Shown here one piece after another: positions 7,480 to 58,447 of a stretch of 64,000 bases of DNA. Positions within the stretch are counted from its first letter, which is position 1. The number at the start of each line of letters is the position of its first letter. The translations under genes were made by a program, and so were the position numbers. The stretch spans positions 744,001 through 808,000 of the forward strand of contig NW_027590138.1 of NCBI RefSeq assembly GCF_964213995.1. Direction: 5' to 3'. Below the pieces are notes generated by a model. It worked only from the letters and a program-made list of their open reading frames with translations. It was not told the origin of the DNA and did not search any database. This DNA is from Mustelus asterias. Lineage: Eukaryota.

Positions 7480-10400
7480 AGGACATGGATGTTCCGGAAA
7501 TTAGGGAAATAAATAATGTTTTGAGGAGTTTACATATTACAGAGAACAGGTGCTGGAAGTCTTAAAGCGTATCCCGTTGGATAAATCCCCGGGACCTGCT
7601 GCAGTGTATCCTAGGACGTTGTAGGAGGCTGGAGAGAAAATTGCAGGTCCCCTAGCAGAGATAGCTGAATCATCGATAGTCACAGGTGAGGTGCCCGAAG
7701 ACTGGAGAGTGGCAAATGTTGTGTCTTTGTTTGAAAAGGGCTGCAGGGAAAAGCCTGGGAATTACGGGCCAGTGAGCTCACACCTGTAGTTTTTACATGC
7801 GTTTGTGGGACATGGGTGTCACTGGCTGGCCAGCATTTATTGCCGATCCCCAGTTGCCCAAAGGTAGTTGAGAGGAAAACACATTGCTGTGGTTCTGATG
7901 TCACATATAGGCCAGGCTGTGCGATGGAGCAGATTTCCTTCCCTAAAGAACATTAGTGAACCAGATAGGTTTTCCTAACAGTCAACAGTGGTTTCATGGT
8001 CATCGGTAGGTTATTAATTCAAAATATTTTTTTATTGAATTCAAATTCCACCATCTGCCATGGTGGAATTCGAACCCCGGTCCCCAAAAAGTAGCTGAAT
8101 TTCTAGATTAATAGTTAAAGGATGAGACCACGAGGCCATCGCCTCTGCTAACTAAGTTGCTCAAATGTATTCTGAGAGACAGGGTCTAAGGGCTTTTGGA
8201 GTGGCAAGGACTGATTAGGGACAGTCAGCATCGCTTTGTGAGTGGAAATTCATGTCTCACAAATTTGATTGAGTTTTTTGAAGGGGTAACCAAGAAGGTA
8301 GATGAGGGCAGTGCAGTCGATGTTGTCTACATGAACTTTAGCAAGGCCTTTGACAACGTACCGCATGGTAAGTTGTTGCATGAGATTAAAACTCACGGGA
8401 TCCAGGGTGAAGTAGCCAAATGGATACAAAATTGCCTTGATGCAGAACACGGAGGGTGCTGGTAGAGGGTTGGTTTTCAAGCCTGTGAGCAGCAGTGTGC
8501 TTCAGGGATCGCAGTTGAGTTCATTTTCATTTGTCATTTGTGTTAATGATTTGGATGAAAATTTCGGAGGCATGGTTAGTAACTTTACAGATGACACCAA
8601 GATTGGTGGCACAGTGGAAAGTGTAGAAGGTTATCTCGGATTGCAGCGGGATCCTGATCAATTCAGACAGTGGGCTGGCGAATGGCAGATGGAGTTTAAT
8701 TTAACGAAATGCGAAATGATGCATTCTGGTAGATCGATCAAGTGCAGGACTTACTCAGTTAATGGTAGAGCATTGGCGAGAGTTAAAGAACAAAGGGATC
8801 TCGGGGTACATGTTCATAGCTCATTGAAAGTGGAGTCACAGGTGGACAGGGAGATGAAAAGGCATTCGGAATGCTTGGTTTCATTGGTCATAACGTTGAA
8901 TACAAGAATTGGGACGTCTTGGTGAAGTTGTAAAAGACATTGGTAAGGACACACTTGGAATACTGTGTACAGTTCTGGCCACCCTATTATAGAGTCATAG
9001 CGTCATAGACGTTTACAGCATGGAAACAGGCCCTTCGGCCCAACTTGTCCATGCCGCCGTTTTTTTTAAAACCCTTAAGCTAATCCCAATTTCTCACATT
9101 TGGCCCATATCCTTCTATACCGATCGTACCCCATGTAACTTTCTAAATGCTTTTCAAAAGACGAAGTTGTACCCGCCTCTACTATTACCTCTGGCAGCTT
9201 GTTCCAGACTCTCACCACCCTCTGTGTGAAAAAATTGTCCCTCTGGGCACTTTTGTATCTCTTCCCTCTCACCTTAAACCTATGCCCTCTAGTTTTAGAC
9301 TCCCCTAACTTTGGGAAAAGATATTGACTATCTACCTTGTATGTGCCCCTCACTAGTTTGGAGTCTATAAGGTCACCACTCAGCCTCCTACACTCCAGAG
9401 AGAAAAATCCCAGACTATTCAGCCTCTCCTTATAACTCAATCCATCAAGTTCTGGTAACTTCCTAGTAAATCTTGTCTGCACGCTTTCTAGTTTAATAAT
9501 ATCCTTTCTATAATATGGTGACCAGAATTGCACACAGTATTCTAAGTGTGGCCTTACCAATGTCTTATATAACTTCAACAAGACGTCCCGATGCCTGTAA
9601 TCAATGTTCTGACCGATGAAACCAAGCATGCCGAATGCCTTCTTCACCACTTTGTCCACCTGTGACTGCACTTTCAAGGAGCTATGAACATCTACCCCTA
9701 AATCTCTTTGTTCTGTAACTCTCACCAACGCCCTACCATTAACTGAGTAAGTCCTGCTCTGGTTCAATCTACCAAAGTGCATCACTTCACATTTGTCGAA
9801 ATTAAAGTCCGTCTGCCATTCGTCAGTCCATTGGCCCAATTGATCAAGATCCCGTTGCAATTGGAGATAACTTTCTTCACTGTCCACTATGCCACCAATC
9901 TTGGTGCCATCTGCAAACTTACTTACCATGCCCCCTATATTCTCATCCAAATCATTAATATAAATGACAAATAACAGTGGGCCCAGCTCTGATCCCTGAG
10001 GCACACGGCTGGTCACAGGCCTCCAGTTTGAAAAACAAATCTCCACAACCACCCTCTGACTTCTGTCAAGAAGCCAATTTTGAATCCATTCAGATACCTC
10101 ACCCTGGATCCCGTGAGATTATAGAAAGGATATTATTAAACTAGAAAGAGTGTAGAAAAGATTCACTCGGATGCTACCAGGACTTGATAGTTTGAGTTAC
10201 AAGGAGAGCTTGGATAGACTGGGACTTTTGCTCTGGCGAGTAGGAGGCTTAGGGACGATCTTATAGAGATCTATGAAATAACGATGGACATAGATCAGCG
10301 AGATAGTCAATATATTTTCACAGTGGTAGGGGAGTCTAAAACTGGAAGGCATAGGTTTAAAGTGAGAGGGGAGAGACATAAAAGGATCCAGAGGAGCAGT

Positions 10401-14300: not shown

Positions 14301-14917
14301 TAATATGGAACTGTAGCTACGTTATATATTTCCAGACATCTCTTTCCTCAGAGGGTTGTGAGTCTTTTGGATTTCTCTTCCAAAGGGACCAGTGGAGGCT
14401 GAGGATCATTGAATATATTCCAGTTAGACAGATCTTTGACTGACAAGGGTGTCAAGGATTATGGGGAACAGACAAGGATGTGGTAAAGCTTTGGAATTCT
14501 CAACCCCTGAGGACAGTGAAACCTCAGTCATCAACTATTTTCAAGAGGGCGATTGATTGGTTTCTAGATATTGAGGATATCAAGGGATATGGGTTCAGTG
14601 TGGGGAGAATAATGCTGAGGTAGATGAACGAATTATCTCCCTGAATAGTTTAAAAGGCTCGATGGGCCAAATGGCCGACTGCAGCTCCTATTTGTTATGG
14701 TCTCTGTGTCCAGGACAGGAAGCAGTGAGCAATAGATAACGCAAAACTGTTTCAATCAGTAGAATATTCGCTAATCCAAATACGCCAGTGTAAGAGAAGG
14801 AAAGGCATTGAATGATCGTGTTCACTTGTTGCACTGCCAGTTGTTCAAAGCTGGAAACACACTGCCTAAAATGGTGGCAGAATATTAAACATAAATATTT
14901 AGAAGGAAATTGTATGT

Positions 14918-17466
14918 AACAGACCACCCAACAGCTCACGGGAAGTGGAGGAAAGGATATGTCAGGAGATTCTGGATAGGTGCAGAAAACATAGGGCTGT
15001 TGTAGTGGGGGACTTTAATTTCCCTGGCACAGACTGGAAAGTGCTTAGAGCTGGGGGACCGGACGGGGAGGAATTTGTAAAATGCGTACTGGAAGGTTCT
15101 TTGGAACAGTATGTAGATAGCCCGACTAGAGAGGGGGCTATACTGGACCTAGTTCTGGGAAATGAGCCCGGTCAGGTCGTCAAAGTTTCGGTAGGGGAAC
15201 ATGTGGCAAATAGTGACCACAACTCTATTAACTTTAGGATAGTAATGGACAAGGATGAGTGCTGTCCTACGGGCAGGGTGCTAAATTGGGGGAAGGCTGA
15301 CTATAGCCGGATTAGGCAGGAATTGGTGGATGTTGATTGGGAGAGGATGTTCGAGGGTAAGTCCGCGTCTGGCATGTGGGAGTCTTTTAAGGAACTATTG
15401 ATAAGGCTGCAGGATAGGCATGTGCCTGTAAAAAGGAAAGATAGGAAAGGTAGGATTCGAGAGCCGTGGATAACCAGGGAAATTGAGGATCTGATTAAAA
15501 TGAAAAGGGCGGCGGACGTCAAGTCCAGGCAACTGAAAACAGATGGAGCTCTGGAGGAATACAGAGAGAGTAGGAAAGATCTCAAACGGGGAGTTAGAAG
15601 GGCAAAAAGAGGTCACGAGATGTTCTTGGCAGGCAGGATTAAGGAGAATCCTAAGGCATTCTATTCATACGTTAGGAACAAAAGAGTTGTCAGGGAGAAA
15701 ATCGGACCTCTCAGGGACAAAGGAGGGGAATTATGTTTAGAACCCAAGGGAATAGGGGAGATCCTAAATGAATACTTTGCATCGGTATTCACGAAGGAGA
15801 GGGGCGTGTTAACCGGGAGTGTCTCGGAGGGAGGTGTTGACCCGTTAGAGAAAATCTCCATTACAAGAGAGGAAGTGTTAGGTTTTTTAGGGAACATTAA
15901 AACTGACAAAGCCCCAGGGCCTGATGGCACCTATCCTCGACTGCTCAGGGAGACGAGAGGTGAAATTGCTGGGCCTCTGACGGAAATCTTTGTCGCTTCT
16001 TTGGACACGGGTGAGGTCCCTGAGGATTGGAGGATAGTGAATGTGGTCCCGTTGTTTAAGAAGGGTAGCAGGGATAACCCAGGAAATTATAGGCCGGTGA
16101 GCTTGACATCCGTGGTAGGAAAGTTGTTGGAGAGGATTCTTAGAGACAGGATGTATGTGCATTTAGAACGGAACAATCTCATTAGTGACAGACAGCATGG
16201 TTTTGTAAGAGGGAGGTCGTGCCTTACAAATTTGGTGGAGTTTTTTGAGGAAGTGACAAAAACGGTTGATGAAGGAAGGGCCGTGGATGTCGTCTATATG
16301 GATTTCAGTAAGGCATTTGACAAAGTCCCACATGGCAGGTTGGTTAAGAAGGTTAAGGCTCATGGGGTACAAGGAGAAGTGGCTAGATGGGTGGAGAACT
16401 GGCTTGGCCATAGGAGACAGAGGGTAGTGGTTGAAGGGTCTTTTTCCGGCTGGAGGTCTGTGACCAGTGGTGTTCCGCAGGGCTCTGTACTGGGACCTCT
16501 GCTATTTGTGATATATATAAATGATTTGGAAGAAGGTGTAACTGGTGTAATCAGCAAGTTTGCGGATGACACGAAGATGGCTGGAATTGCGGATAGCGAA
16601 GAGCATTGTCGGGCAATACAGCAGGATATAGATAGGCTGGAAAATTGGGCGGAGAGGTGGCAGATGGAATTTAATCCGGATAAATGCGAAGTGATGCATT
16701 TTGGAAGAAATAATGTAGGGAGGAGTTATACAATAAATGGCAGAGTCATCAGGAGTATAGAAACACAGAGGGACCTAAGTGTGCAAGTCCACAAATCCTT
16801 GAACGTGGCAACACAGGTGGAGAAGGTGGTGAAGAAGGCATATGGTATGCTTGCCTCTATAGGACGGGGTATAGAGTATAAAAGCTGGAGTCTGATGATG
16901 CAGCTGTATAGAACGCTGGTTAGGCCACATTTGGAGTACTGCGTCCAGTTCTGGTCGCCGCACTACCAGAAGGACGTGGAGGCATTGGAGAGAGTGCAGA
17001 GAAGGTTTACCAGGATGTTGCCTGGTATGGAGGGTCTTAGCTATGAGGAGAGATTGGGTAGACTGGGGTTGTTCTCCTTGGAAAGACGGAGAATGAGGGG
17101 AGATTTAATAGAGGTATACAAGATTATGAAGGGTATAGATAGGGTGAACAGTGGGAAGCTTTTTCCCAGGTCGGAGGTGACGATCACGAGGGGTCACGGG
17201 CTCAAGCTGAGAGGGGCGAAGTATAACTCAGACATCAGACGGACGTTTTTTACACAGAGGGTGGTGGGGGCCTGGAATGCGCTGCCAAGTAGGGTGGTGG
17301 AGGCAGGCACGCTGACATCGTTTAAGACTTACCTGGATAGTCACATGAGCAGCCTGGGAATGGAGGGATACAAACGATTGGTCTAGTTGGACCAAGGAGC
17401 GGCACAGGTTTGGAGGGCCGAAGGGCCTGTTTCCTGTGCTGTACTGTTCTTTGTTCTTTGTTCTTT
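14918..17466 (+). mobile_element. Young 5'-truncated CR1/HER1 LINE with uninterrupted ORF2 (partial endonuclease plus RT)
   Basis: 813-aa ORF at 14945-17386 with GDFN, SDH, PGPDG, QHGF and FADD, ending in a (TGTTCTT)n tail. Confidence 0.95.
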
Positions 17467-18713: not shown

Positions 18714-19331
18714 TCACGCCGTGAGACGGTGACAATAAAGGCAAAGTCGCCATAGCCGCAGAGGCTGGAGGCGATTTAACCTGAGGATCGCACATCGCCT
18801 CAGGAGAGCGGTCGAGGTTGAGATGGCGGCAGCTTCATGAATGACCTCACCGGGTACAGATATTGATGCTTTGCATCACTAACCAGATATCCAGCAACTG
18901 AGCTGAACGACAATATTCTCATTGCTTGTTGTACCTGTCAGAGAACATTTGTGATTCACGCACGAGGACAGGCAAATCCCTTTGAATCTCAGACTTCTGC
19001 AATCTCGCACCTTTTATTTAATACGCTTCTTTCCTGCCAAAATGCATCACATCACAGTCGCTATTTTTGACTTTCTTCTTTGCATTGCTTCCGGATTTTT
19101 TGAGCTCTACGTATTCTTACTGCACTTTTTCGCTTTGTCTTTCTTTCATTCTGATTTGCATGTAACCTCTTCCATTTTCTTTGAATACATTCCCAACTCT
19201 CTTCATTTTAAGCTTTTTAAAATTTTCTGATTCAAGAAATGTTTTGCTCTCACCCCCCTTACCATTGGAATTTAATACCGCGCTTGTTGAAACACTGATA
19301 TTTCTGCGGAGCGGTTTTTGAAAACGGTGCA

Positions 19332-19370
19332 GGTTTCTGTACGGGACCTGCCTGTGTTTATTACAGTGTG
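19332..19370 (-). other. 23-RSS of V3 (CACACTG, 23 nt, ACAGAAACC)
   Basis: Heptamer 19364-19370, spacer 19341-19363, nonamer 19332-19340. Confidence 0.9.
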
Positions 19371-19703
19371 CCTCATGGTGCAGAAATAGGTGGCAGTGTC
19401 TGAAACCTGTACGTCTCTCACAGTCAGGATGCTGAGTTTGTTGCCTTCTCCGATCGAAGCAGTGATCCTCCCGTGTTGATCGGTTCCGCTTGTGGCCATC
19501 ACCAGATGCTGGGGCGACTGATTCGGGAGCTGTTTATACCAACGCACGGTGTCAAACGTAATGGAAATAGTGCAGTTCATGGATATATTTCTCGCTTCAC
19601 TGATAACCATCCGTGGAGGGAGCTGCAGCAACTCAGCTTCTCCGGTCATCCCCGTGCAGATCAGAGTGAAAAACAACAAAACGTCGATGCAAATCCTGAC
19701 CAT
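19371..19703 (-). CDS. TCR alpha/delta-type V segment V3, leader and V in one exon
   Basis: Continuous ORF MVRICIDVLLFFTLICTGMTGEAELLQLPP...MNC...WYKQLPNQSPQHL...DTATYFCTMR with no intron between signal peptide and V domain. Confidence 0.9.
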
Positions 19704-20324
19704 TCTCAGTTCACACACAACACCGAGGTCAGCTTTGAACCAGGAGATGAAAATTAACCCGGAACCAAGTATTTTCTTCGGGTTCAGTTCAGTGCCGTGT
19801 TTATGTTGAACTGACAACATTAGGCGGGTTCTACTTTAGCCACCCATACTGAGCGTTTCACACTGACACAGGCCCACACAGCCTCTGAGTACACACCTGA
19901 CACGCCCAGATTAAATATTTCTCACGGGACACACTGCTCTCTACTGGTGAATACTGGTAATTCCAGGGTGCAATTCTTCACTTGGATCTTCGACAAGTTG
20001 CAGTTCACAAGATAGTTATAAATGAGAACAGCTGTTTCCTCCTTCGTGTTATAGCTCTTTTATTGCGGGAGAGCTTACAACTTTCCTTCTGTTCTACGAT
20101 CCAACGATTGCAGTGCATTTTGCTCTCTCGTTCTTTCTGAAGTCTCATTCCACATTGTGACCAGTCCCGGTGTGTTAGTCCTAAAATATCGTTCGATAAT
20201 TTGGGAACTTGTGCAATGGGAACTGGTCTAGCCATCGAATGTATGTTACATAACTACAGGAGTGGCAACATTGACAATTCATAAGAATATTTCAAAAAAT
20301 AATAAGTTTGTTATCAGTGTTAAC

Positions 20325-25206: not shown

Positions 25207-26229
25207 TGGGTCTGGTCTGAGGGACAGAAACATCTCTCCCGGAGCTGATCTGAATATCCAGCCCTGAGTTTGTGGGAATTTACAACTGATCAGAAACTGG
25301 TTTAACTTGTAAACTGATTTGATGACGGATCTGCCGGTCTGATCGGAATCTGCAGTTAATTTTCTCGGTCATGACTGGAAAAAAAATGGGTGAATGTTTA
25401 GTCCGAGGTTAATGTGGTTTCCGCTGGGTGTGTGTTTTTTGATGCGGCTGAGAACAGCACTGCTCACAGTGGCTGTATCTATCCAGATTCTATCCTTTGT
25501 CTAACATCAAGTGTAATTTACTAACCCTGCACTTGATAGAAATCAATAAGGTTACATCGAGGTTTCTTTTGAATCAATTTTTGAAAAATGCCATCTGGGC
25601 CTTTTGCTAAGATGAAGCTCAGGTCAAGCGCTGGAAGGAATATAATACCTGCTCCAATCAGCTAGGATGTTGTTAATCAAGCCCAAGACTGGAGGAATGG
25701 GCCCTGTGTTGTCGGCTTCGATCTGCAACGTCTCTCTTGCAGCGACTTTTGAGTGGACCAATTCGGTTTTTGATTGGATATAACTAAAACAAAAAGCCGG
25801 CATCTCGGTCTTTGGACTCGGATCAAGCATCAAATGGAGCCCAAGATCAGGTGCGATGCTCTTTCATGTCAGCCTGGATCTTTTGCGAGGACCATGAATT
25901 AGATTCAATTTGAATTGGTTTTGGGGGCGATTAGGAGATGGATTCTGGCTTGGCCAGTCCGCTCTGCGCATTGGCTTTGCAACGTTAAGCAATTACTATT
26001 TTACAATGCGACAGACAGGAGCTCCCGAAGACAATGCAAAGTGCGGGGTTGGATTGGTTTCCATCATAAATTCCGTCAGTGAGTCCTTATTCTGATCAAC
26101 TGTTCAGAGTCCAATTTCTCCAGCTGGAGATGGAGAGAGGTTTGGCTGCCTGACCGGTGCTGTTGCTGTTGTTTGTTTCACGATTGGCTGCAAACATGAG
26201 TAAGACTTCCTGCGAGCGCAGTTCAATAT

Positions 26230-27940
26230 CATCCACATTGGATTTGGTACTGGGAAATGAACCGGACCAAGTGTTAGATTTGGTTGTGGGAGAGCACTTT
26301 GGAGATAGTGACCACAATTTGGTGTCTTTCTTTATTGCAATGGAGAGGGATAGGGCTGTACGGCAGGGCAAGGTTTATAATTGGGGGAGGGGTAATTATG
26401 ATGGGATTAGGCAAGAATTAGGGAGCATAAGACGGGAACAGAAACTGTCAGGGAAAGGCACAAATGAAAAATGGAGCTTGTTCAAGGAACAAATACTGCA
26501 TGTCCTTGATAGGTATGTCCCTGTCAGGCAGGGAGGAAATGGCCGAGTGAGGGAACCATGGTTCACAAAAGAGGTTGAATGTCTTGTCAAGAGGAAGAAG
26601 GAAGCGTATGTAAGGATGAGAAAGCAAGGTTCAGTTGGGTCCATTGAGGGTTACAAGTTAGCAAGGAATGAGCTGAAAAAAGGGCTCAGGAGAGCTAGGA
26701 GGGAGCATGAGAAGTCCTTGTGGGTCGGATCAAGGAAAACCCCAAGGCTTTTTACTCTTATGTGAGGAATAAAAGAATGACCAGGGTGAGGTTAGGGCCG
26801 GTCAAGGACAGTAGTGGGAACTTGTGCATGGAGTCAGAAGAGATAGGAGAGGCGATGAATGAATACTTTTCTTCAGTGTTCACCAAGGAGAAGGGCCATG
26901 TTTTTGAGGATGAGAGTGTGATACAGGCTGATAGGCTGGAGGAGGCAGATGTTCTGAGGGAAGATGTATTAGCAATTTTGAAAAACCTGAAGGTCGATAA
27001 ATCCCCTGGGCCAGATGAGATATTTCCTAGGATTCTTTGGGAGGCAAGGGATGAGATTGCAGAGCCTTTGGCTTTGATCTTTGGGTCCTCACTGTCCACG
27101 GGGATAGTGCCAGAGGACTGGAGAGTGGCGAATGTTCAAGAAAGGAAATAGGAATGACCCTGGTAATTATAGACCGGTTTGTCTTACTTCGGTGGTTGGT
27201 AAGTTAATGGAAAAGGTCCTGAGGGATAGGATTTACGACCATTTAGAAAGATGCAGCTTAATCCGGGATAGTCAACACGGATTCGTGAAGGGTAAGTCTT
27301 GCCTCACAAATTTGATTGAATTTTTTGAGGAGGTAACTAAGTGTGTCAATGAAGGTGGAGCAGTTGATGTCATATACATGGATTTTAGTAAGGCGTTTGA
27401 TAAGGTCCCCCATGGTCAGCTCATGAAGAAAGTAAGGAGGTGTGGGATAGAGGGAAATTTGGCACTGGAAAGAGTGCAAAGGAAATTTACCAGGATGCTG
27501 CCTGGTTTGGAGGGTAGGTCTTATGAGGAAAGGTTGAGGGAGCTAGGGCTTTTCTCTTTAGAGTGGAGGAGATTGAGAGGCGACTTCATGGAGCTTTATA
27601 AGATGATGAGGGGGAGAGATAGAGTGGATGTTCAGAGACTATTTCCTCGGGTGGATGTAGCTGTTACTAAGAGGCATAACTATAAGGTTCATGGTGGGAG
27701 ATATAGGAGGGATGTATGAGGTAGGTTCTTTACTCAGAGAGTGGTTGGGGTGTGGAATGGACTGCCTGCTGTGATAGTGGAGTCAGACACTTTAGGAACA
27801 TTTAAGTGGTTATTGGATAGGCACATGGAGCACACCAGGATGATAGGGAGTGGGATAGCTTGATTTTGGTTTCGGAAAAGGTTTGGCACAACATCGTGGG
27901 CTGAAGGGCCTGTTCTGTGCTGTACTGTTCTATGTTCTAT
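26230..27940 (+). mobile_element. CR1 ORF2 copy with frameshifts and an internal deletion
   Basis: LDLVLGNEP...SDH, PGPD and QHGF, then a jump at ~27460 from GIEGNL to ALERVQR. CR1 tail present. Confidence 0.9.
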
Positions 27941-28071
27941 CTCATGTACAGATAGTTGCCCCCATCATGATGCTTTCCAAAACTCCTTACCTACCATCCT
28001 TGGGCTTTCTTTGTACTGAGATTCCCTTCGTTTGAAAAGGGGTGGATTAAAAGTTCTCAAAATTAGTTTTT

Positions 28072-28352
28072 TTTAAAGTTTATTTATTTGTCACAAGTAA
28101 GGCTTGCATTAACACTGCAATGAAGCTACTGTGAAATTCCCCCAGTTGCCACACTCCGGTGCCTGTTCAGGTCAATGCACCCTAACCAGCACGTCTTTCA
28201 GACTGAGAGAGGAAACCAGAGCAGCCGAAGGAAACCCAAGCAGACACGGGGAGAATATGCAAACTCCACACAGACAGAGACCCAAGCCGGGAATCGAACC
28301 CGGGTCCCTGGCGCTGTGATGCAGCAGTGCTAAAAACTGTGCCACCATGCCG
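28072..28352 (-). mobile_element. HE1-type SINE
   Basis: A and B boxes and core on the minus strand. Confidence 0.85.
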
Positions 28353-29387
28353 TCACTGTCACTGTGCCACCATGGATGTCAGTGCCCTTTCTTTGTTTTA
28401 ATCTAATGACCACATGGTCTAGGAATCATTTCTATTTCATAATTTCTCCTTTTCAACACTTTCCTTCAGTATCCAATTCCAGAATTTTCCTTTTCATTGT
28501 GTTAATTGCGTCAGGAATAAATCTTTGGATCCGACAGGAAGTTTAACTCAAGATCAATCCAACACAGGATTGGTCAGAATCATTTCACATGTCCCAAATT
28601 TTAAATAACCATTACAAATTAAAATTCTCATTCTCACGTGTGAATTGTATCTGGATTGAAATTCCTGCATGTTTAGTAAACTATCCTGGAATCCTGTCTC
28701 TGGCCAGTAAATATGGTTCCAGGTTCATAACTTATGAAAAAAAGCTTTATTAATCACACTTACTTTTTTAAAATCTGTTTGATTTAAATCACAGACAGAA
28801 AGCCTCAAAGCTTGAAGCATTGAATCCATAAATATCATCCATACACAAGCAGAGAAACTTAGCATGTGCTTTACAACAACAATAACCAGAATGAATTTCT
28901 TAAGCGTTCTTGTGGTTCTGCTTTTAAACTTCCAGAAATGCCTTTAATTAAAGACTCAAGATAAGGTTAATTTCCCAGAAAGATAAACCTTAACAAATGT
29001 AGCCCAAAACAATGATAAAACGCATCTACAAACATCCATAAAACAAATGAAACATGCAGGTTCTCACAGCTTGTAAATTTCAAGCAATGAATCGTCAGCA
29101 TTCTCTCTCTCTCAGCTATAGCTTCTTAAAGCGACAGAGCACTACAAGCTCACAACTCCTTGAATAAGATACAAGATCCTTCATTCTAACCGTTTTTAGC
29201 CAACTTCCAAGACCTGATTCATAGGCAAAATCGCAAACAAGTTGCCACCGGAAAAATCTTTGTTCTTTACCTGGGGTTGAGGTGACAACACGATAAAATT
29301 CTCAGTTATTCCAAATTCCTCCAGGCTATGCGTAAATTTCCACATTTAACTGGATCCCATAAATCCTCAATTATAAACTAAAATGTG

Positions 29388-31084
29388 GGTGTGGAATGGA
29401 CTGCCTGCAGTGATAGTGGAGTCAGACACTTTAGAAACATTTAAGCGGTTATTGGATAGGCACATGGAGCACACCAGGATGATAGGGAGTGGGATAGCTT
29501 GATCTTGGTTTCAGATAAAGCTCGGCACAACATCGTGGGCCGAAGGGCCTGTTCTGTGCTGTACTGTTCTATGTTCTATGTTCTATGTGTTCATTCATCA
29601 CCTCGCCTATCTCTACTGACTCCATACAGGGATGGTGCCAGAGGACTGGAGAATGGCGAATGTTGTTCCTCTGTTTAAGAAAGGGAATAGAAATGACCCT
29701 GGTAATTATAGACCGGTTAGTCTTACTTCGGTGGTTGGTAAATTGATGGAAAAGGTCCTTAGGGATGGGATTTACGACCATTTAGAAAGATGCGGATTAA
29801 TCCGGGATAGTCAGCACGGATTCGTTAAGGGCAAGTCGTGCCTCACAAATTTGATAGAATTTTTTGAGGAGGTAACAAAGTGTGTTGATGAAGGTGGGGC
29901 AGTTGATGTCATATACATGGATTTTAGTAAGGCGTTTGATAAGGTCCCCCATGGTCGGCTTATGATGAAAGTGAGGAGGTGTGGGATAGAGGGAAAGTTG
30001 GCCGATTGGATAGGTAACTGGCTGTCTGATCGAAGACAGAGGGTGGTGGTCGATGGAAAATTTTCGGATTGGAGGCAGGTTGCTAGCGGAGTGCCACAGG
30101 GATCAGTGCTTGGTCCTCTGCTCTTTGTGATTTTTATTAATGACTTAGAGGAGGGGGCTGAAGGGTGGATCAGTAAATTTGCTGATGACACCAAGATTGG
30201 TGGAGTAGTGGATGAGGTGGAGAGCTGTTGTAGGCTGCAAAGAGACATAGATAGGATGCAAAGCTGGGCTGAAAAATGGCAAATGGCGTTTAACCCTGAT
30301 AAATGTGAGGTGATTCATTTTGGTAGGACTAATTTAAATGTGGATTACAGGGTCAAAGGTAGGGTTCTGAAGACTGTGGAGGAACAGAGAGATCTTGGGG
30401 TCCATATCCACAGATCTCTAAAGGTTGCCACTCAAGTGGATAGAGCTGTGAAGAAGGCCTATAGTGTGTTAGCTTTTATTAACAGGGGGTTGGAGTTTAA
30501 GAGCCGTGGGGTTATGCTGCAACTGTACAGGACCTTGGTGAGACCACATTTGGAATATTGTGTGCAGTTCTGGTCACCTCACTATAAGTAGGACGTGGAA
30601 GCGCTGGAAAGAGTGCAGAGGAGATTTACCAGGATGCTGCCTGGTTTGGAGGGTAGGTCTTATGAGGAAAGGTTGAGGGAGCTAGGGCTGTTCTCTCTGG
30701 AGCAGAGGAGGCTGAGGGGAGACTTAATAGAGGTTTATAAAATGATGAAGGGGATAGATAGAGTGAACGTTCAAAGCCTATTTCCTCGGGTGGATGGAGC
30801 TATTACAAGGGGGCATAACTATAGGGTTCATGGTGGGAGATATAGGAAGGATATCAGAGGTAGGTTCTTTACGCAGAGAGTGGCTGGGGTGTGGAATGGA
30901 CTGCCTGCAGTGATAGTGGAGTCAGACACTTTAGGAACATTTAAGCGGTTATTGGATAGGCACATGGAGCACACCAGGATGATAGGGAGTGGGATAGCTT
31001 GATCTTGGTTTCAGATAAAGCTCAGCACAACATCGTGGGCTGAAGGGCCTGTTCTGTGCTGTACTGTTCTATGTTCTATGTTCT
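29388..31084 (+). mobile_element. CR1: isolated 3' end (29388-29587), short inverted piece, then a 5'-truncated RT copy with one premature stop
   Basis: ORFs 29632-30591 and 30595-31002 are in frame and separated by TAG. Both ends carry (TTCTATG)n tails. Confidence 0.9.
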
Positions 31085-32137
31085 AAAATAGACAGATGAG
31101 TTTCTGAGTGATTTAAAAACAAATCAAATGTCTGCTGAAAGGGTTAACTTTTCTACAGAACCTAAAGGGGTGGGGAGTGAGCGGGAAAAACTTGGCACAC
31201 AATTACGTCACTTTGTACAAGTTTAAAAAACTTCTCTATCAACCAAACAAACTTGATTTTAAGCTTCATCTATTAATTTTTTGTTATTTTCCTCAACATA
31301 ATTATTTTCATTTGATCAGTTTTTCTTAGGGATGGGTAACTTCTGTTCTTTATAAACTGGTTCACTCATTTTGTTTATTCTACATGGGCTCGGAGAATCA
31401 GAACCCAGACTTTATCATCCTGACCATTTTAGTCCTTTTGCCACCACTCCCACTGTTTTGCAGGAGGGTTGTGGGAATTCCAATCAGAACTAATCATTTT
31501 ATCATAAAATTTAAATACTGCAGACGCTGAAACAAAAACACAAAATGCTGGGAAATCTCAGCAGATCTGACAGCACCTGTGGAGAGAGAATAGAGCCAAT
31601 GTTTCAAGACTGGATGACCCTTCATATGAGCTGTGATGAAGTATTATCCAGACTTGAAACGTTGGCTCTATTCCCTAATCACTTTATCAATAAATTTCAT
31701 GTTCTTAGTTTCCAAATGGCAGGTAAGAGACCGGTCCGCACTCGAGTTCTGATTTTTCACTGGCCATGCTTGGGTAAGATTATAACCATTAGTATCTACT
31801 CTGATGTCTGCTTTTCAGTCCAGTGCTACTTGGAGTATTCCATCACTTCGCTGACTATTGGATCACAAGTTCCTCACAGTTCTCATCACAAATTTATGAT
31901 AAAATAATTTAAACAATGCCTGCGAACACTTCTTAGCTTCTTAACCAACTGCTTATCACTGTTTGTAGATTTGTCAGGCCCCATTTTTACAGATTCAAGT
32001 ATCTTAGCCACAGAACACCAGCTGTTGCTGGAAGAAGTTTAATTCTAACTCATTCTGAGTAAATATTCTTACCAGGTCCTCTGTCAGGGCCCTGCTAAGC
32101 AGCTTTAATGGTCCGTGATTGCAGAAACTGAGCAGTC

Positions 32138-34945
32138 AAGAACAAAGAACAGTACAGCACAGGAAACAGGCCCTTCGGCCCTCCAAGCCTGTGCCGCTCC
32201 TTGGTCCAACTAGACCAATCGTTTGTATCCCTCCATTCCCAGGCTGCTCATGTGACTATCCAGGTAAGTCTTAAACGATGTCAGCGTGCCTGCCTCCACC
32301 ACCTTACTTGGCAGCGCATTCCAGGCCCCCACCACCCTCTGTGTAAAAAACGTCCCTCTGATGTCTGAGTTATACTTCGCCCCTCTCAGCTTGAGCCCGT
32401 GACCCCTCGTGATCGTCACCTCCGACCTGGGAAAAAGCTTCCCACTGTTCACCCTATCTATACCCTTCATAATCTTGTATACCTCTATTAGATCTCCCCT
32501 CATTCTCCGTCTTTCCAAGGAGAACAACCCCAGTCTACCCAATCTCTCCTCATAGCTAAGACCCTCCATACCAGGCAACATCCTGGTAAACCTTCTCTGC
32601 ACTCTCTCCAATGCCTCCACGTCCTTCTGGTAGTGCGGCGACCAGAACTGGACGCAGTACTCCAAATGTGGTCGAACCAGCGTTCTATACAGCTGCATCA
32701 TCAGACTCCAGCTTTTATACTCTATACCCCGTCCTATAAAGACAAGCATACCATATGCCTTCTTCACCACCTTCTCCACCTGTGTTGCCACCTTCAAGGA
32801 TTTGTGGACTTGCACACCTAGGTCCCTCTGTGTTTCTATACTCCCGATGACTCTGCCATTTATTGTATAACTCCTCCCGACATTATTTCTTCCAAAATGC
32901 ATCACTTCGCATTTATCCGGATTAAATTCCATCTGCCACCTCTCCGCCCAATTTTCCAGCCAGCTATATCCTGCTGTATTGCCCGACAATGCTCTTCGCT
33001 ATCCGCAATTCCAGCCATCTTCGTGTCATCCGCAAACTTGCTGATTACACCAGTTACACCTTCTTCCAAATCATTTATATATATCACAAATAGCAGAGGT
33101 CCCAGTACAGAGCCCTGCGGAATACCACTGGTCACAGACCTCCAGCCGGAAAAAGACCCTTCGACCACTACCCTCTGTCTCCTACTCAGTACATGACCCC
33201 TCTAAGTTGTCTACCCTCTGCACCGCGGTAATATGCTCCTTAACTAATATCGCTACTCCCCCACCTTTTTTAGCCCCTCCTCTGTCTCGCCTAAAACACT
33301 TATACCCCGGAATATTCAGTTGCCAGTCCTGTCCTTCTTTTAACCAAGTTTCCGTCACCGCAACCACATCCAAATTCCGCACAAGCATTAAGGCCCTAAG
33401 TTCGTCTGTTTTACCCGTTACACTCCTCGCATTGAAGCAGATGCACTCCAGACCTCCAGGCCCAGTCAGGTCCTCCTCCTCCAGAGTGCTCCTCTTCTTA
33501 GCTAGCCTTGCCCTGGCCCCCAGCTCGACCCCAGCCTCAGTATTTACTGACCTCCTGTTTTGTTCCCCACCCCCCTGCCACACTAGTTTAAATCCTGCCG
33601 AAACACTCTAGCAAAACTCCCAGCCAGGATATTTGCTCCCTTCCAGTTAAGGTGTAACCCATCCTTTCTGTACAGTTGCCATCCTGACTTGAAGATTTCG
33701 CAGTTATCTATGAATTTAAAACCCTCCCTCTTGCACCAGTCCTTTAGCCACGCGTTCAACTGTAGAATCTCCCTGTTCCGAGCCTCACTTGCACTCGGCA
33801 CCGGGAGCAGTCCAGAGATTGCTACCCTGGAGGCCTTACTTTTTAGCCTAGCACCCAACTCCCTGAATTTCTCTCGTATGACCCCCCTGCTCTTCCTACC
33901 TACATCATTTCCCCCAATGTGTACAATCACATCCGTTTGACTCCCTTCCTTTTTAAATATGCTTCCTACCCTCTCGGAGACATCCAGTACCCCAGCACCA
34001 GGGAGGCAGACTACCATCCTGGATTCTCGTTCAGTCCCACAGAAGCGCCTGTCCGTGCCTCTAACCATTGCGTCCCCCACAACTATCGCTCTCCTAAACC
34101 CCTTCTTTCCCTTCTGGACCCCTGAGCCTGTCTCCGTGGAGGCGATCTGGTCCTCATGGCTTACCCCTGGAGGGTCATCCCCCTCCACAGAATCCAAAAC
34201 AAGATACCTATTTTGGAGGGGGACAACCACAGGGGATCCCTCCACAGACTGCTTACTCCCTTCCCTTCTCCCATCTGTTGCCCATTCCTTTCTTTTATGG
34301 GAGACTGCCACTGGGGTACTTTCTGGCACATCACCCTTCTGACTATTACCCCTCCTAACTGTGACCCACGTGTCTTCCTTCCGAGACCCTGGTGTCACTA
34401 CCTGACTGTAACTTTTATCTATTACTCGCTCATTTTCCCTAACTAAACTGAGTTCATCGAGCCTCAGCTCCAGCTCCCTTACACGATCCTTCAGGAGATG
34501 CAGTTCCACGCATCTGGCATAGATATGGACTTCCGGGAGGCAACTTGTCTCCAGGAACTCCCACATCCCACACCGAATGCAGTATACTGGCCTCCCACTC
34601 ATATCAGCCATGTCCTTTTTAGTTTTGGGGATGAAACAAAAAGGGGGTGTAACCGAAGAAAAACAAACAAACAACCTTCCTCGCCTTCGCCGAAGCCCTG
34701 TGAGCCAAAGCCCTTTTAGCTCTCACTCTGTCCCCTGCTCACTCCACTGCCCGCTAACGACGCTGCCCGCTCAAAGGTGCGGCCTACTTTTAAACCCTCC
34801 AAAACCTTCCCAGGCTGCTGCTGGGCCTATTTCCTGTTTAGAAAAAAAAACCTCCGATTTTTTTCACTAATTTAACTGAAAAAATAATTAAATAAATTAG
34901 TGCACACACAAGCTCCCTTACCCTCAGCCTGCTCCTGTGGAACAA
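32138..34945 (-). mobile_element. CR1/HER1 LINE with 5' UTR, ORF1, ORF2 N-terminus, large internal deletion and 3' end
   Basis: The 3' part is nearly identical to 16410-17460. ORF2 start (CFNARS, VAVTETWL, GGGVA) is at 33186-33583, with the deletion junction near 33185. Confidence 0.93.
33583..34611 (-). CDS. CR1 ORF1p (zinc finger/leucine zipper plus SGNH esterase-like domain)
   Basis: CIRCGMW zinc finger, coiled coil LKDRVRELELRL, and SGNH blocks GDA(S)MVR, HIGGND and DGLHLN. Confidence 0.85.
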   Translation of the reverse strand: MADMSGRPVYCIRCGMWEFLETSCLPEVHIYARCVELHLLKDRVRELELRLDELSLVRENERVIDKSYSQVVTPGSRKEDTWVTVRRGNSQKGDVPESTPVAVSHKRKEWATDGRREGSKQSVEGSPVVVPLQNRYLVLDSVEGDDPPGVSHEDQIASTETGSGVQKGKKGFRRAIVVGDAMVRGTDRRFCGTERESRMVVCLPGAGVLDVSERVGSIFKKEGSQTDVIVHIGGNDVGRKSRGVIREKFRELGARLKSKASRVAISGLLPVPSASEARNREILQLNAWLKDWCKREGFKFIDNCEIFKSGWQLYRKDGLHLNWKGANILAGSFARVFRQDLN

Positions 34946-35554
34946 TGAGTCACAGGAATGTGGTCAAGATAGTCCAGTCCCATAATGCCTCACATTCAAT
35001 CTGCAGTCCTTCAATTATAACAGAATATGTGGCTGTCTGTAGCTGCCTCGGCCATGGTCAACCCCAACACTGCCTTCCTGAACTGCTACAATGCCTGAGG
35101 TGTAAGTACACCCACAGTGCTGTTAGGGAGGGATTTCCAGCTACACGTTCCAGTCTTTCACGAGACTGTAGGTGGATATCAGATTGATATATTCCATTCA
35201 ACCACACCCAAGGTGAGTTATTCCAATTTCTTTATTGTCCAGGACAATATATTCACAATATCTTTAAAACAGAAATTAAACATTCCCATTTGATTTCAGA
35301 CAGTAACATATTCTGTTAGCTTGTTCTTTATTGTTGATGTCAGGCTGGGGTTGTTCCCCTTGGAGCAAAGGAGGTTGAGGGGAGATTTGATAGAGGTGGA
35401 CAAGATTCTGACAGGTTTAGATAAGGTGGACAAAGAAAAGCTGTTCCCATTAGCTGATGGGACAAGGATGAGGGGGGGTGCAGATTTAAGGTTTTGGGTC
35501 AGAGATGCAGGGGGGTCGTGAGGAAGAATATTTTGGTGCAGCGAATGGTAATGA

Positions 35555-36262: not shown

Positions 36263-36937
36263 TCACTCGTGAACTTGTTGGTGTCTCAGCAGCTGGGATG
36301 AAACTGTGAATCCCGTCCCACACTGAGAGCAGGTGAATGGCCTCTCCCCAGTGTGAACTCGCTGGTGTCTCAGCAGGACGGATGACCAAGTGAACCTCTT
36401 CCCACACTGAGAGCAGGTGAACGGTCTCTCTCCAGTGTGAACGCGCTTATGTGCCCGCAGGTTGGATGACCGAGTGAATCCCTTCCCACACTGAGAGCAG
36501 GTGAATGGCCTCATCCCAGTGTGAACTCGCTGGTGTGTGCGCAGATTGGATGAATGACTGAATCCCTTCTCACACTGAGAGCAGGTGAATGGCCTCTCAC
36601 CAGAGTGAAGTCGCTGGTGTGTCTGAAGGTTGGATAACCGACTGAACCCCTTCCCACACTGAGAGCAGGTGAATGGTCTCTCCCCTGTGTGAACTCGCTG
36701 GTGTGTCTGCAGGGTGCATGACTGAGTGAATCCCTTCCCACACTGAGAGCAGGTGAAGGGCCTCTCCCCTGTGTGAACTCGCTGGTGTATCTGCAGCTGG
36801 AATAACCGAGTGAATCCCTTCCCACACTGAGAGCAGGTGAATGGTCTCTCCCCAGTGTGACTGCGCCGATGAGCTTCCAGCTCTGATGGGGATCTGTATC
36901 TCTTCCCACAGTCCCCACATTTCCATGGTTTCTCCAT
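36263..36937 (-). CDS. C2H2 zinc-finger protein ZNF-A (8 fingers, no KRAB seen)
   Basis: ATG MEKPWKC at 36937, then 8 CxxC...HxxxH fingers with TGERPF linkers. The upstream exon part (to ~37290) is degenerate. Confidence 0.9.
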
Positions 36938-39619
36938 GGTGCAGGTGTCCTTGCCTCTTTCTTGAGTGGACAATCAGTTGAAGCCTTGCCCACACACAGA
37001 ACACGGGTACCGTCTCTCCCCGCTGTGAATGTTGTGATATTTATTCAGGCTGTGTAACTGGTTAAAGCTCTTCAGTCAGTGCACTGAAACACCCTCACTC
37101 GAGTGTGGCCGTGTGTTGGTGCTTTTCCAGTCACACTGACACTTGAAATCTTTTCAAATTGACAAACTGGACAACAATTTCTCCTTCTAGATTCAAAGGC
37201 CGATGATATTCAGCTCCCATGGAATATGACTCTGTCAGATCGAGATGTGACGTTTGAGATTTCGGCCTGTGATTCCTCTTTCAGTATCCTGTAAAACAAG
37301 TTTACAAAAGTCATCAGTGTCAGTACAGGATAGAAATTCAGAACAGACAATTCTAGTTTCTATGGAACATTCTTTCCTCTCTCCAGACTCGAAACATTGG
37401 CTCTATTCTCTCTCTATCTTGGGGATAGCGTGGGAAATGATGCTGCAGTCGATCAGCCAATTCTCAATGAATGGTTGAGGCAGTTCGATGGGCTGAATGG
37501 CCAACTGCAGCTCCTGTTTCTTATGATTTGTGTGTGGTGGACAGGAAGCAGTGAGCATGGATCTGTCAATCAGCCTCAATCAGCACCTTCAGGAGAATTG
37601 GGAGGGCGAATATTAGATACAGCAGAGTGAGAATGGAGGGAGAGTGTGTGGAATGAAGATTCACAGCTTTTGGGGAACGAGAGAGGAAAGAATGTTCATT
37701 CGAATCATAGAATTCTTACATCTTATCAACCGTCCCTGAGCCTTCACAATGAATCTCTCTTCTCAGGACACTCTTATCTCTGACTTGTCTGTGCTGCTCG
37801 CAGTCTCACAAAGCAGCTGCCTGTGTGTTGGTACAAGGGGCCCTGCTCGGCAAGTTTAATGCTCCATGACTGTGTCTTTAATGACTGAATAACTATAGGA
37901 ATATGGTCAAGTCAGCTAAATCCAGGATGCTTTATATTTCGGTTAGTAACTGTCCATTTTGTTAACACAGCACATTTGGATACATAAATACATATAAAAG
38001 CAAAATATTGCGGATGCTGGAATCTGAAACAAAAACAGAAAGTGCTGGAAAATGTCAGCAGGTCTGACAGCATCTGTGGAGAGAGAATGGAGCCAACATT
38101 TAAAGTCTGGATGACCCTTCATCAGAGTTCTGACAAAGGGTCATCCAGACTCGAAATGTTAGTCTATTCTCTCTCTATAAATATATATACGACAGCTGCC
38201 TCAGCCTTGGCCCACTCTAATACATGCACGAAGCAGGGCTGACTATGTGGAAATGCTCAGATTAAAGTTTCCTGCCTTCTCTTTAACAGCGAGTGAAAAT
38301 GTTTATCGGCTTGCAGACCTTCAAAGGAGTCAGTGTCTGCTATTTCAGCATGAACAGGCTAATCTTCACCTACGTAGGCCCCAGAACATTCTGCTTTTCG
38401 GCCTTCACCAGAGGGTGAGCAAGACCAGATTTCTCCATAACAAATACCAAAGGTGAGATATGGGGATATGCTATGCAAATAAAAGATTTGCAGAAATTAA
38501 TTTTGAATGCGAAAGGGTGAAAAGCGAGGATTTAATTGGCGAATATGTCCGTCAATGAAGGATTAGAAACATTCCTGGTTTCTGATTTGCTGTAATTGAC
38601 TATTATTGCCAAGTTATTTTTCTGTAACATCAGAACCACTTGCGGGACAGCTGCACAGGGTTTCCCCTTGTGCACAAGTCATTAAAGGCCCCACATTGGA
38701 TTGTGCGTGGTGTCCAGTGCTGTTTGTACTCAAGTCGACTAAGAATGCCTAAAGGTACTGGTACCCAGGATCTCTGACAACTCTCCCTAACCGGACCTTG
38801 ACTATCCAAAGGTTGGCCAGAATCCTCTCCAGTAACTTACCTGCCACTGGTGTCAGGCTCACCGGCCTGTAATTACCAGGCTTCTCTTTGCAGCCCTTCT
38901 TAAACAATGGAACAACATTAGCCACACTCTAGTCTTCCAGAACTTCACCAGTGGAAAGGGATGAAGCAAATATCTCTGCAAGGCCCTCTGCAATTTCATC
39001 CCCAAGTTCCCCAAACTCCCACAAGATCCAAGGATGCACTTGATTTGATTTATTATTGTCATATGTACTAGTATACAGTGAAAAGAATTGTTTCTTGCAC
39101 ACTATCAAGACAAAGCATACAGTTCATAGAGAAGGAAAGGAGAGAACATAAGAACATAAGAAATAGGAGCAGGAGTAGGCCATCTAGCCCCTCGAGCCTG
39201 CCCCGCCATTCAATAAGATCATGGCTGATCTGACGTGGATCAGTACCACTTACCCGCCTGATCCCCATAACCCTTAATTCCCTTACCGATCAGGAATCCA
39301 TCCATCCGCGCTTTAAACATAAAGGGTGCAGGATGTAGTGTTACAGTCATAGCTCAGGTGGACAGAAAGATCAACTTAGTGCGAGGTAGGTCCATTCAAA
39401 AGTCTGACGGCAACAGGGAAGAAGCTGTTCTTGAGTTGGTTGGTATGTGAGCTCAGACTTTTGTTTCATTTCCCCAATGGCAAAAGGTGGAAGTGTGAAT
39501 GTCCGGGGTGTGCGGGTTGATTATGCTGGCTGCTTTTCCGAAGCAGCCGGATGTGTAAAGAGTCAATGGATGGGAGGCAGGTTTGCGCAATGGACTGGGC
39601 TTCATTCACAATCCTTTGA

Positions 39620-47345: not shown

Positions 47346-47997
47346 ATAAAAGCAAATTACTGCGGATGCTGGAATCTGAAACCAAGAGAGAAAATGCTGG
47401 AAAATCTCAGCAGGTCTGGCAGCATCTGTAAGGAGAGAAAAGAGCTGATGTTTCTTGTCTCGATGACCCTTTGTCAAAGCTCTGAAACATCAGTTCTTTT
47501 CTCTCCATACAGATGCTGCAAGACCTGCTGAGAATGGGGAGAGAGCTTTTGGGGAATGAGAGAGGAAAGAATGTTCCATAGAAATTGTCTGTTCTGAATT
47601 TCTATCCTGTACTGACACTGATGACTTTTGTAAACTCATTTTCCAGGATATTGAAAGAGGAATCACAGGCCGAAATCTCAAACATCACGTCTAGAACTGA
47701 CAGAGTCGTATTCCTTGGGACCTCAATATCACCGGACTTTGAATCCAGAAGGAGAAATGATTGTCCAGTCTGTCGATTTGAAGAGATTTGAAATGTCAGT
47801 GTGAGTGAAAAAGCATCAACACACTGCCACACTCGAGAGAGAGTGTTCCAGTGCACTGACTAAAGAGCTTTAACCAGTTACACAGTCTGAATAAATATCA
47901 CACCATTCACAGCGGGTAGAGACTGTAATCTTGTTCTGTGTGTGGACGAAGTTTCAACTAGTTGTCCACCCAAGAGAGAGGCAAGGACACCTGCACC

Positions 47998-48672
47998 ATG
48001 GAGAAACCATGGAAATGTGTGAACTGTGGGAAGGGATGCAGAACCCCATCTCAGCTGGAAGCTCATCGGCGCAACCACACTGGGGAGAGGCCGTTCATCT
48101 GCTCTCAGTGTGGGAAGGGATTCACTCAGTCATCCCACCTGCAATCACACCAGCTACGTCACACAGGGGAGAAGCCGTTCACCTGCTCTCAGTGTGGGGA
48201 GGGATTCACTCGGTCAACCAACCTGCAGTCACACCAGCGAGTTCACACTGGGGAGAGACCATTCACCTGCTCTCAGTGTGGGCAGGGATTCATTCAGTTC
48301 TGCAGCCTGCAGACACACCAGCGAGTTCACACTGGAGAGAGGCCATTCACCTGCTCTCAGTGTGGGAAGGGATTCACTCGGTCGTCCCACCTGCAGAGAC
48401 ACCAGCGAGTTCACACTGGGGAGAGGCCATTCACCTGCTCTCAGTGTGGGAAGGGATTCACTCGGTCAACCAACCTGCAGTCACACCAGCGAATTCACAC
48501 TGGGGAGAGACCGTTCACCTGCTCTCAGTGTGGGCAAGAATTCACTCAGTTATGCATCCTGCGGACGCACCAGCAAGTTCACACTGGGGAGAGGCCATTC
48601 ACCTGCTCTCAGTGTGGGAAGGGTTTCAGCGTTTCATCCCAGCTGCTGAGACATCAACAGGTTCACGAGTGA
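47998..48672 (+). CDS. C2H2 zinc-finger protein ZNF-B (8 fingers), inverted paralog of ZNF-A
   Basis: ATG MEKPWKC at 47998 and 8 fingers. N- and C-termini and 3' UTR are near-identical to ZNF-A. Acceptor ttccag/GATATTG near 47647. Confidence 0.9.
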
Positions 48673-57064: not shown

Positions 57065-58447
57065 GGCAACATCTGGGAGGAAATCAATGTCTCCCCCTTT
57101 CCATTTCCTTTCTCATTCTGGGGGAAATTGGGGACTTGCAGCAACTGATGGGAAAGGAAGTGAATCCAGGGAGACTGCAGACTCTGAAAACGTTATAGAC
57201 GAACATCGGAATTAGGAGCAAGACTAGGCCCAGGTATCTTTTTCTTTCTCTCACAAGACATTGACATCCTTTAGCTCCCTCACTTTGACATGTTTATATA
57301 TCTGGCTAATAGGATGGCCTCTTACCCAATGTTCATAATTCAAGGGGGAGTTTTCTCAGGAGAGGGCTAACATTTTAATGAACAGTAAATTTGTATGGGA
57401 GAGAGATATGTTTAATGTAGTTACATGGTATATACTATGTTATTTACGATTCCCTATTTCTTGTCTTAAAATATATAGCAGTGTATCAACATTATCTATT
57501 TTCAGTGATGGAAACATTACAACATAGAATAGGCAACTCAGATCCATGCCAACTCTCTGTGGAGCAATTCAGTCAGTCCCATTCCCTCTCTGTATCCCCA
57601 TTCCCCTGTGTTTCACGTCACAATGGAATGGATGAGAGTTCCAAAGGAGCTGAGACTGGAGTAGAGTTGATCAATGGCACTGAGGTGGAAATAGGCGGTC
57701 TTGATGATGATGTGGCAATGTGGCTGGAAGCTCAACTTGGGGTGAAATATTTTACCATGGTTGTGAACAGTTTGCTTCAGCCTCAGACAGTTGCCAGGAA
57801 GAGGGAGAGAGTTGCTGGCGAGGGAGTGGAGTTTGCAGTGGGGACTGAAGACAATGGGTTCAGTCTTCCCAATGTTTATATGAAAGAAATTTCTGTTCTT
57901 TTAGTACTGGACGTCAGACAAGTCAGGGTGGTGTGTGAGTTGGAGGGGAACTTGAAGGTGATGGTGTTCCCATCTAGTTGCTACCCTGGTCCTTCTAGGT
58001 GGGTGGAGGTTGAGGGTTTGGGAAACTTTCTGTCAAAGTTCTAATTGAGTTGTCAATGTACAAAATCCCTCTCCTTCACCCTGACCTCTCCTACTTCTCT
58101 CTATCTTCTCTCTCAGTGTCCAGAGTCTTGTGTCCAGACCGTGTGGCAGATTTCCTGCCCTGAAGGATATCAGTGAACCCGCTGGGTTTTTATGACAATC
58201 CAGCAGTTTTCATGATCACTTTTTCCGAGTGCCAGCCCCACAAATGACCAGATTCATTCAGCTCAATTTCACAAACTGCCTTTGTGTTTTTGTGGGTTCT
58301 CTCTCACTTCCTTTTTTCTGTTTTAAATCAATTTCACAGGGTTTAGAAGAGGAGGATTTGCAGTTGGGAAACTGAAACCAAATATTATATCAAAACCTGA
58401 TGGAGTTAGCCAATTTATTGTAACCTGAATATCATTGTGTTTTGAAC

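Follow-up and report, generated by a model that had tools for sequence, protein, structure and literature searches.

Features of the locus

We describe a LINE copy on the minus strand of a 64,000-nucleotide stretch of the genome of Mustelus asterias (contig NW_027590138.1, positions 744,001 to 808,000; hereafter the window), in which two open reading frames meet at a putative site of programmed -1 ribosomal frameshifting (Table 1). The ORF1 of this copy scored above the cut-off of the SGNH esterase profile (PF13472), and its -1 frame matched the Exo_endo_phos profile (PF03372); the RVT_1 profile scan covered another LINE ORF2 of the window, not this copy. The nearest named ORF1 homologs, among the NCBI matches listed, were from sharks and rays, and ORF1 homologs at NCBI came from sharks, rays, reptiles and birds. 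Judged from these homologs, and from junctions that resemble those of consensus rows labelled CR1, the element is probably a CR1 LINE with an esterase ORF1. The same combination of a Cys-rich and heptad region with an SGNH esterase in ORF1, an APE endonuclease and reverse transcriptase (RT) in ORF2, and a microsatellite tail is described for canonical CR1 of vertebrates in the accessible text of two papers (type IVB, CR1_7 of PMC4120745; Canonical-CR1 of PMC13343379).

Table 1. Position of the LINE copy, its parts and its ORF1/ORF2 junction in the window.
Feature	Position	Strand	Evidence or remark
CR1 LINE copy (probable), 5' end complete, ORF2 internally deleted	32135..34949	-	BLASTN to intact sibling L229, 98.7%, two blocks
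ORF1, 342 aa: N-terminal Cys-rich and heptad-like region, then SGNH esterase	33583..34611	-	ATG at 34611
SGNH/GDSL esterase domain, aa 203-326	33634..34005	-	PF13472, E 7.7e-11
Stop TAG in -1 frame, 8 codons before the putative slip; shuts ORF2 frame upstream	33608..33610	-	kept in 12/13 families
Candidate slippery heptamer T_TTA_AAC, final 7 bases of ORF1	33586..33592	-	
ORF1 stop abutting the heptamer	33583..33585	-	TAG 7, TAA 5, TGA 1 among 13 families
G-rich motif from +11; candidate stimulator without conserved fold	33565..33575	-	
Linker of 50 codons in -1 frame, without stop or AUG	33437..33586	-	
APE endonuclease, N-terminal part, truncated by the deletion, with a stop at its end	33182..33436	-	PF03372, E 5.7e-9; FNARS at 33436, first ATG at 33388
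Junction of the ~1550-nt ORF2 deletion	33183..33184	-	
ORF2 3' part, C-terminal part of the RT region	32210..33183	-	
3' UTR (short) and microsatellite tail	32135..32209	-	

The window copy is dead, having lost 1.55 kb of ORF2, and siblings are intact; the three intact siblings that were extended have 972-975 codons open from the slip. Its flanks and its deletion recur in two further copies (L002 and L006, on contigs C90 and C119), so that L001, L002 and L006 represent one insertion that was duplicated with its region (segmental duplication). The family is young, the best 40 of 1695 candidates matching at 99-100%.

On the minus strand, ORF1 ends CAG GAT TTA AAC TAG. The heptamer TTTAAAC, which the original prediction had seen closing ORF1 in exact X_XXY_YYZ phase, was recovered at the same coordinates (33592-33586), followed by the stop (33585-33583). 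Past the TAG at 33610-33608, the -1 frame reads L-V-W-Q-G... and reaches FNARS 50 codons past the slip; the claim that a -1 slip leads into the ORF2 frame thus agrees with the open linker and with the Exo_endo_phos match behind it. The first ATG of this frame lies 66 codons past the slip and 16 codons past the start of FNARS. The window contains the motif TTTAAACTAG once, where 0.14 occurrences are expected, and the 1314 codons of an intact sibling include 5 canonical heptamers in phase; given this chance background, a single occurrence is weak evidence, and it is conservation that raises the junction above chance.

Conservation of the heptamer

Because near-identical copies are not independent, divergent subfamilies were sampled. 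The genome was searched with seven queries (30 loci each), three spanning the junction and four ending at least 8 residues before it, and a pattern of the esterase catalytic loop served as anchor (195 sites in 210 loci). The copies were clustered by their upstream sequence alone and singletons were merged manually, which yielded 13 families that are ~55-84% identical upstream, two of them single copies.

The heptamer TTTAAAC and a stop follow the anchor at exactly 26 codons in the majority sequences of all 13 families, with Leu always encoded by TTA and Asn by AAC, without a single synonymous change. Leu is preceded by GAT, GGT, AGT, CGT, GCT or ACT (D, G, S, R, A, T), a codon with a final T in 13/13, and the stop itself varies among TAG, TAA and TGA. 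As controls, the commonest codon of four other invariant Leu columns is found in 4, 5, 9 and 9 of the 13 families, and AAC in 7/13 at the other invariant Asn column. When changes were counted on a tree from which the heptamer had been left out, the 56 third positions used as controls had a mean of 2.9 changes (3/56 without change) and the three third positions of the heptamer had none, for a crude p of about 1.5e-4 that is rough because the 13 families share ancestry. Among the loci from the junction-blind queries (120, of which 15 without anchor were dropped), the heptamer was exact and in phase in 82 of 103 distinct copies and nearby in 94 of 103; with all queries combined, it was retained in 176 of 188 distinct copies. 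Because CpG decay and family heterogeneity confound the comparison with control 7-mers in single copies (92/102 vs 785/1122), it was left unused.

Fixation at synonymous sites means that the constraint acts on the RNA letters, beyond the protein. The heptamer is thus conserved in phase across CR1 subfamilies, which was the check that the original prediction had proposed. The -1 stop 8 codons upstream would end ribosomes that slip early, and it leaves no space for an upstream start of ORF2. An additional -1 stop lies 4 codons before the slip in F11 and F12, and 13/13 families have T as the third base of codon -9.

Reading frame and start codons of ORF2

The endonuclease motif was found in 136 copies, at 44-121 codons from the slip; 100 of them have it in the -1 frame, and frames 0 and +1 account for 18 each. 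In eight majority linkers, the -1 frame has 0 stops over 415 codons, compared with 21 and 36 stops in the remaining frames; the codon positions of the linker showed little or no clear synonymous bias. The -1 frame is modal in 9/13 families, and F05, F09, F10 and F11 (older or single-copy families) have no clear mode. In four majority sequences (F05, F10, F11 and F12) the endonuclease is in frame 0; a further one lacks a match to the endonuclease motif yet has 177 codons open. The length of the G-run downstream of the heptamer is highly variable in the copies of F05, F10, F11 and F12, up to 17-19 G, and this variation accounts for the broken frame of dead copies and of these four majority sequences.

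The first AUG lies past the first endonuclease motif in five families (F01, F04, F06, F07 and F08), in F04 and F08 by 95-120 codons, and an AUG precedes the endonuclease in six families, in two of which (F02 and F09) it overlaps the stop as TAATG. The original claim that ORF2 has no ATG before its first endonuclease motif consequently holds for the window copy and for five families, and fails in the six with an earlier ATG. No start or near-cognate codon is shared at a fixed position across the 13 families: the codon after CTA is GTG, ATG, ATT, GAA/GTA, GTT, GAT, AAT, GAG or GCA. A conserved start overlapping the stop is likewise absent (ATG in 2/13, GTG in 1/13), which rules out the overlapping GTG as a general start. 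An upstream UGGGA is absent in 3/13 families and variable in position in the others.

Search for a stimulator

The G-run starts most often at +11 (modal start in 9/13 families) and covers +11 in the other families, and a second short G-run lies at +18 to +20. At +12 to +14, Gly is encoded by GGG in every family except for one deleted copy that serves as representative, and the Gly columns of ORF1 vary. The G-tract that had been placed 7 nt downstream stands in modified form: GG at +7 is present in the window family only, and the G-run common to the families starts at +11.

Downstream of the heptamer, no conserved fold was detected in three windows (mean folding z +0.3 to +0.4, no better than shuffles, in a model of folding without explicit pseudoknots); Rfam gave no match, and the G-run had no conserved long-range partner in 20 extended copies from 10 families. 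A G-quadruplex appears in the minimum free energy structure of 8/13 families only. Long-range pairing of the G-run was rejected, its best duplexes lying at positions that bear no relation to each other or in ORF1 codons rich in C, and so were local hairpins, which occur in single families, with z near 0 and without a shared fold. Efficient frameshifting nearly always depends on a stimulator at a distance of 5-9 nt (PMC7618472), and the tested optimum for a G-quadruplex stimulator is a spacer of 6-8 nt (PMC3919603, accessible part). The usual stem-loop or pseudoknot at 5-9 nt finds no support at this junction, which is where the case for frameshifting is weakest.

Relatives in other animals

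From 181 homologous proteins, those with the motif of the catalytic loop at 20-45 residues before the C-terminus were retained (116). The C-termini of these ORF1-like proteins carry LN in 71, GN in 9 (all QGN) and x-K-N at the same place in 6, and none of these in 24. LN is preceded by a residue whose codons are unable to end in U in 1/71 proteins, versus 99/639 residues upstream, a modest difference, with positions -6 and -7 also low. The named proteins ending in LN include those of a snake, turtles and a swallow. Three stork gene models contain S-F-K-L-D-x-K-G-E-G leading to YTNARS, which is what the same junction gives when read in the -1 frame; in the stork elements, an AUG precedes the endonuclease. 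Published CR1 consensus sequences share the junction motif with the window element, and the rows with this motif read as what we take to be alligator, crocodile, bearded dragon, bullfrog, coelacanth, bowfin, chimaera, rays and sharks. Of 23 motif matches in the supplementary consensus table of PMC13343379 (about 1000 rows, 400 letters of each), 18 lie at the ORF1/ORF2 junction as judged by eye, a count that is biased because the table was searched with the motif itself. The same 10-mer is also found in the 5' UTR of two consensus sequences of that supplement, SquAca_CR1-3 and SquAca_CR1-18.

A metagenome scan gave one QGN locus from 9 candidates. In this contig (L165), CAG GGA AAC TAC TAG holds G_GGA_AAC in phase, the zero-frame stop comes one codon later, and the -1 frame is open to the contig end, 11 nt past the heptamer; the swap to G_GGA_AAC rests on this one contig. 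The x-K-N group (P0113, P0125, P0150, P0155, P0171 and P0174) consists of distant ORF1s with a variable tail of 10-11 residues, and these proteins may use A_AAA_AAC with a longer overlap, to judge from their residues.

Protein scans of IMG/VR found no relative. Several candidates were rejected: 14 pattern matches in IMG/VR, which are not CR1; a single 17-aa match in GTDB, which is spurious; and longer fused proteins in 12 gene models, which are not evidence of a real fusion. One protein listed under a bacterial name at NCBI (P0016) is a shark-type CR1 ORF1 on a 4-kb contig and probably represents host contamination.

Interpretation of the junction

The CR1 junction, with its characteristic layout, its conservation at synonymous positions, its linker open in the -1 frame and no start codon common to the families, is at the level of sequence best read as a case of probable programmed -1 frameshifting. 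With the heptamer kept in 13 lineages and ORF2 one base back, the copying enzyme is likely made by a slip that joins both genes. A gag-pol-like ORF1-ORF2 fusion by -1 slippage, as originally proposed, gains support from the conservation of the heptamer and from the GTG, which is not conserved. The heptamers U_UUA_AAC, G_GGA_AAC and A_AAA_AAC are among the most shift-prone (PMC5009743, accessible part). Most ribosomes would stop after the heptamer and release ORF1p, and a minority would slip by -1 on it and produce an ORF1-linker-endonuclease-RT fusion, predicted to have 1314 aa in the intact sibling, with a presumably low ORF2p:ORF1p ratio. More speculatively, the stimulator could be the unstructured G-run at +11, protein-bound or forming a weak G-quadruplex in some families, and a pause before termination might help the slip.

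Termination followed by reinitiation beside the ORF1 stop in the -1 frame, at an AUG (TAATG) or independently of AUG in the way put forward for mammalian L1, would give a separate ORF2p and accounts equally well for the open linker. The TAATG of F02 and F09 and the TAGTG of the window family are suited to it, and there are precedents in the UAAUG of SART1, in caliciviral reinitiation, which tolerates changes of the start codon (PMC5972666, accessible part), and in L1, whose ORF2 is thought to start AUG-independently (PMC5009743, accessible part). Yet reinitiation leaves unexplained why seven bases are frozen beside a stop and a following codon that both vary, and why L165 has G_GGA_AAC with its stop one codon later; with no near-cognate start at a common position, and UGGGA missing in 3/13 families and misplaced in others, we regard it as unlikely. 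If the heptamer were instead kept for the C-terminal Leu-Asn of ORF1p together with an RNA signal other than slippage (termination context, packaging or RT binding), ORF2 would be read from downstream AUGs. Leu-Asn closes the last esterase helix, and a linker AUG is present in many families, but a constraint on the protein could not single out TTA from the six codons for Leu or hold a final T in the codons of six different residues, the QGN and x-K-N groups alter the residue and yet fit the slippery pattern, and starts at downstream AUGs would cost 95-120 endonuclease residues in F04 and F08, all of which makes this explanation very unlikely.

Splicing of ORF2 to an upstream start through the AG of the ORF1 stop, or a separate ORF2 transcript, seems to us extremely improbable. 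The stork gene models do attach other sequence just upstream of S-F-K-L, and TAG is usable as an acceptor, but the TAA or TGA of 6/13 families offers no AG, the sequence upstream is purine-rich without a pyrimidine tract, and contigs of four sequencing runs, which span the junction but are uninformative on expression, strand and frame, contain no joint there, a weak argument since contigs drop rare forms.

A broader form of the frameshift reading would have the esterase CR1 LINEs of jawed vertebrates and distant animals make their endonuclease and RT only as a frameshift fusion, with the heptamers U_UUA_AAC, G_GGA_AAC and A_AAA_AAC swapped among lineages and the vertebrate G-run, 10 nt downstream, acting as a protein-bound stimulator, which would be the first protein-stimulated frameshift in a cellular retrotransposon. 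Taken as a whole, this is a tentative proposal that we consider doubtful.

Comparison with known systems

How LINEs start ORF2 has been called an open question (PMC3894237), and CR1-group elements dominate the retrotransposons of most vertebrates (PMC13343379, accessible part). For the APE-type non-LTR elements TRE5-A and TRE3-A of Dictyostelium, a review states that a -1 frameshift is required for ORF2 (PMC5911963, figure legend); these are other elements, with another ORF1. Since -1 frameshifting has already been stated for TRE5-A and TRE3-A, CR1 is a candidate new case of a known type of mechanism. In a search of openly accessible papers, PMC11835228 among them, we found no earlier description of frameshifting in CR1. 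The available text of PMC4120745, PMC13343379, PMC2734521 and PMC3905857 does not use 'frameshift' for a translation mechanism, 'CR1' does not occur in the first 300,000 characters of PMC5009743, and the one paper that combines CR1 and ribosomal frameshift uses the latter term, in its accessible part, for retroviruses.

Known frameshift systems in which a structural ORF precedes a polymerase ORF use the same heptamers as CR1 (PMC5009743, accessible part), but the CR1 junction differs in having no pseudoknot or stem-loop at 5-9 nt and in the stop that abuts the heptamer. The nsp2 signal of PRRSV consists of a conserved motif that is short, lacks structure and follows a 10-nt spacer (PMC4937337), and it matches the G-run of CR1 in spacing only: the PRRSV motif is C-rich, is bound by nsp1beta/PCBP and follows a non-canonical shift site, whereas that of CR1 is G-rich. 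By this analogy, the G-run may be a protein-bound stimulator. Bicistronic LINE RNA is common to CR1, SART1 (UAAUG coupling) and mammalian L1 (reinitiation), and TAATG occurs in 2/13 CR1 families; unlike in SART1, it is the heptamer and not a stop-start overlap that is conserved across the families.

If CR1 does use frameshifting, the slip would set the ORF1p:ORF2p ratio and tether the enzyme to the esterase, itself proposed to target membranes, and annotations of CR1 ORF2 from the first AUG would be truncated. The junction may also reveal a new kind of stimulator.

Other features of the window

Other CR1 ORF2 pieces (14903-17386, plus strand; 9075-10118, minus strand; 26154-30591, plus strand) are 5'-truncated, and none includes an ORF1/ORF2 junction. 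Translations inspected by eye at 2-517, 19272-19835, 4007-4951 and 36263-36973 (minus strand) and at 47962-48672, 58424-59315 and 62539-63477 (plus strand) comprise antigen-receptor V-like segments, a GPCR-like ORF and several C2H2 zinc-finger ORFs. Outside the window, the full-length copies L015, L019 and L027 of the element have the first ~160 nt of the 5' end repeated in tandem.
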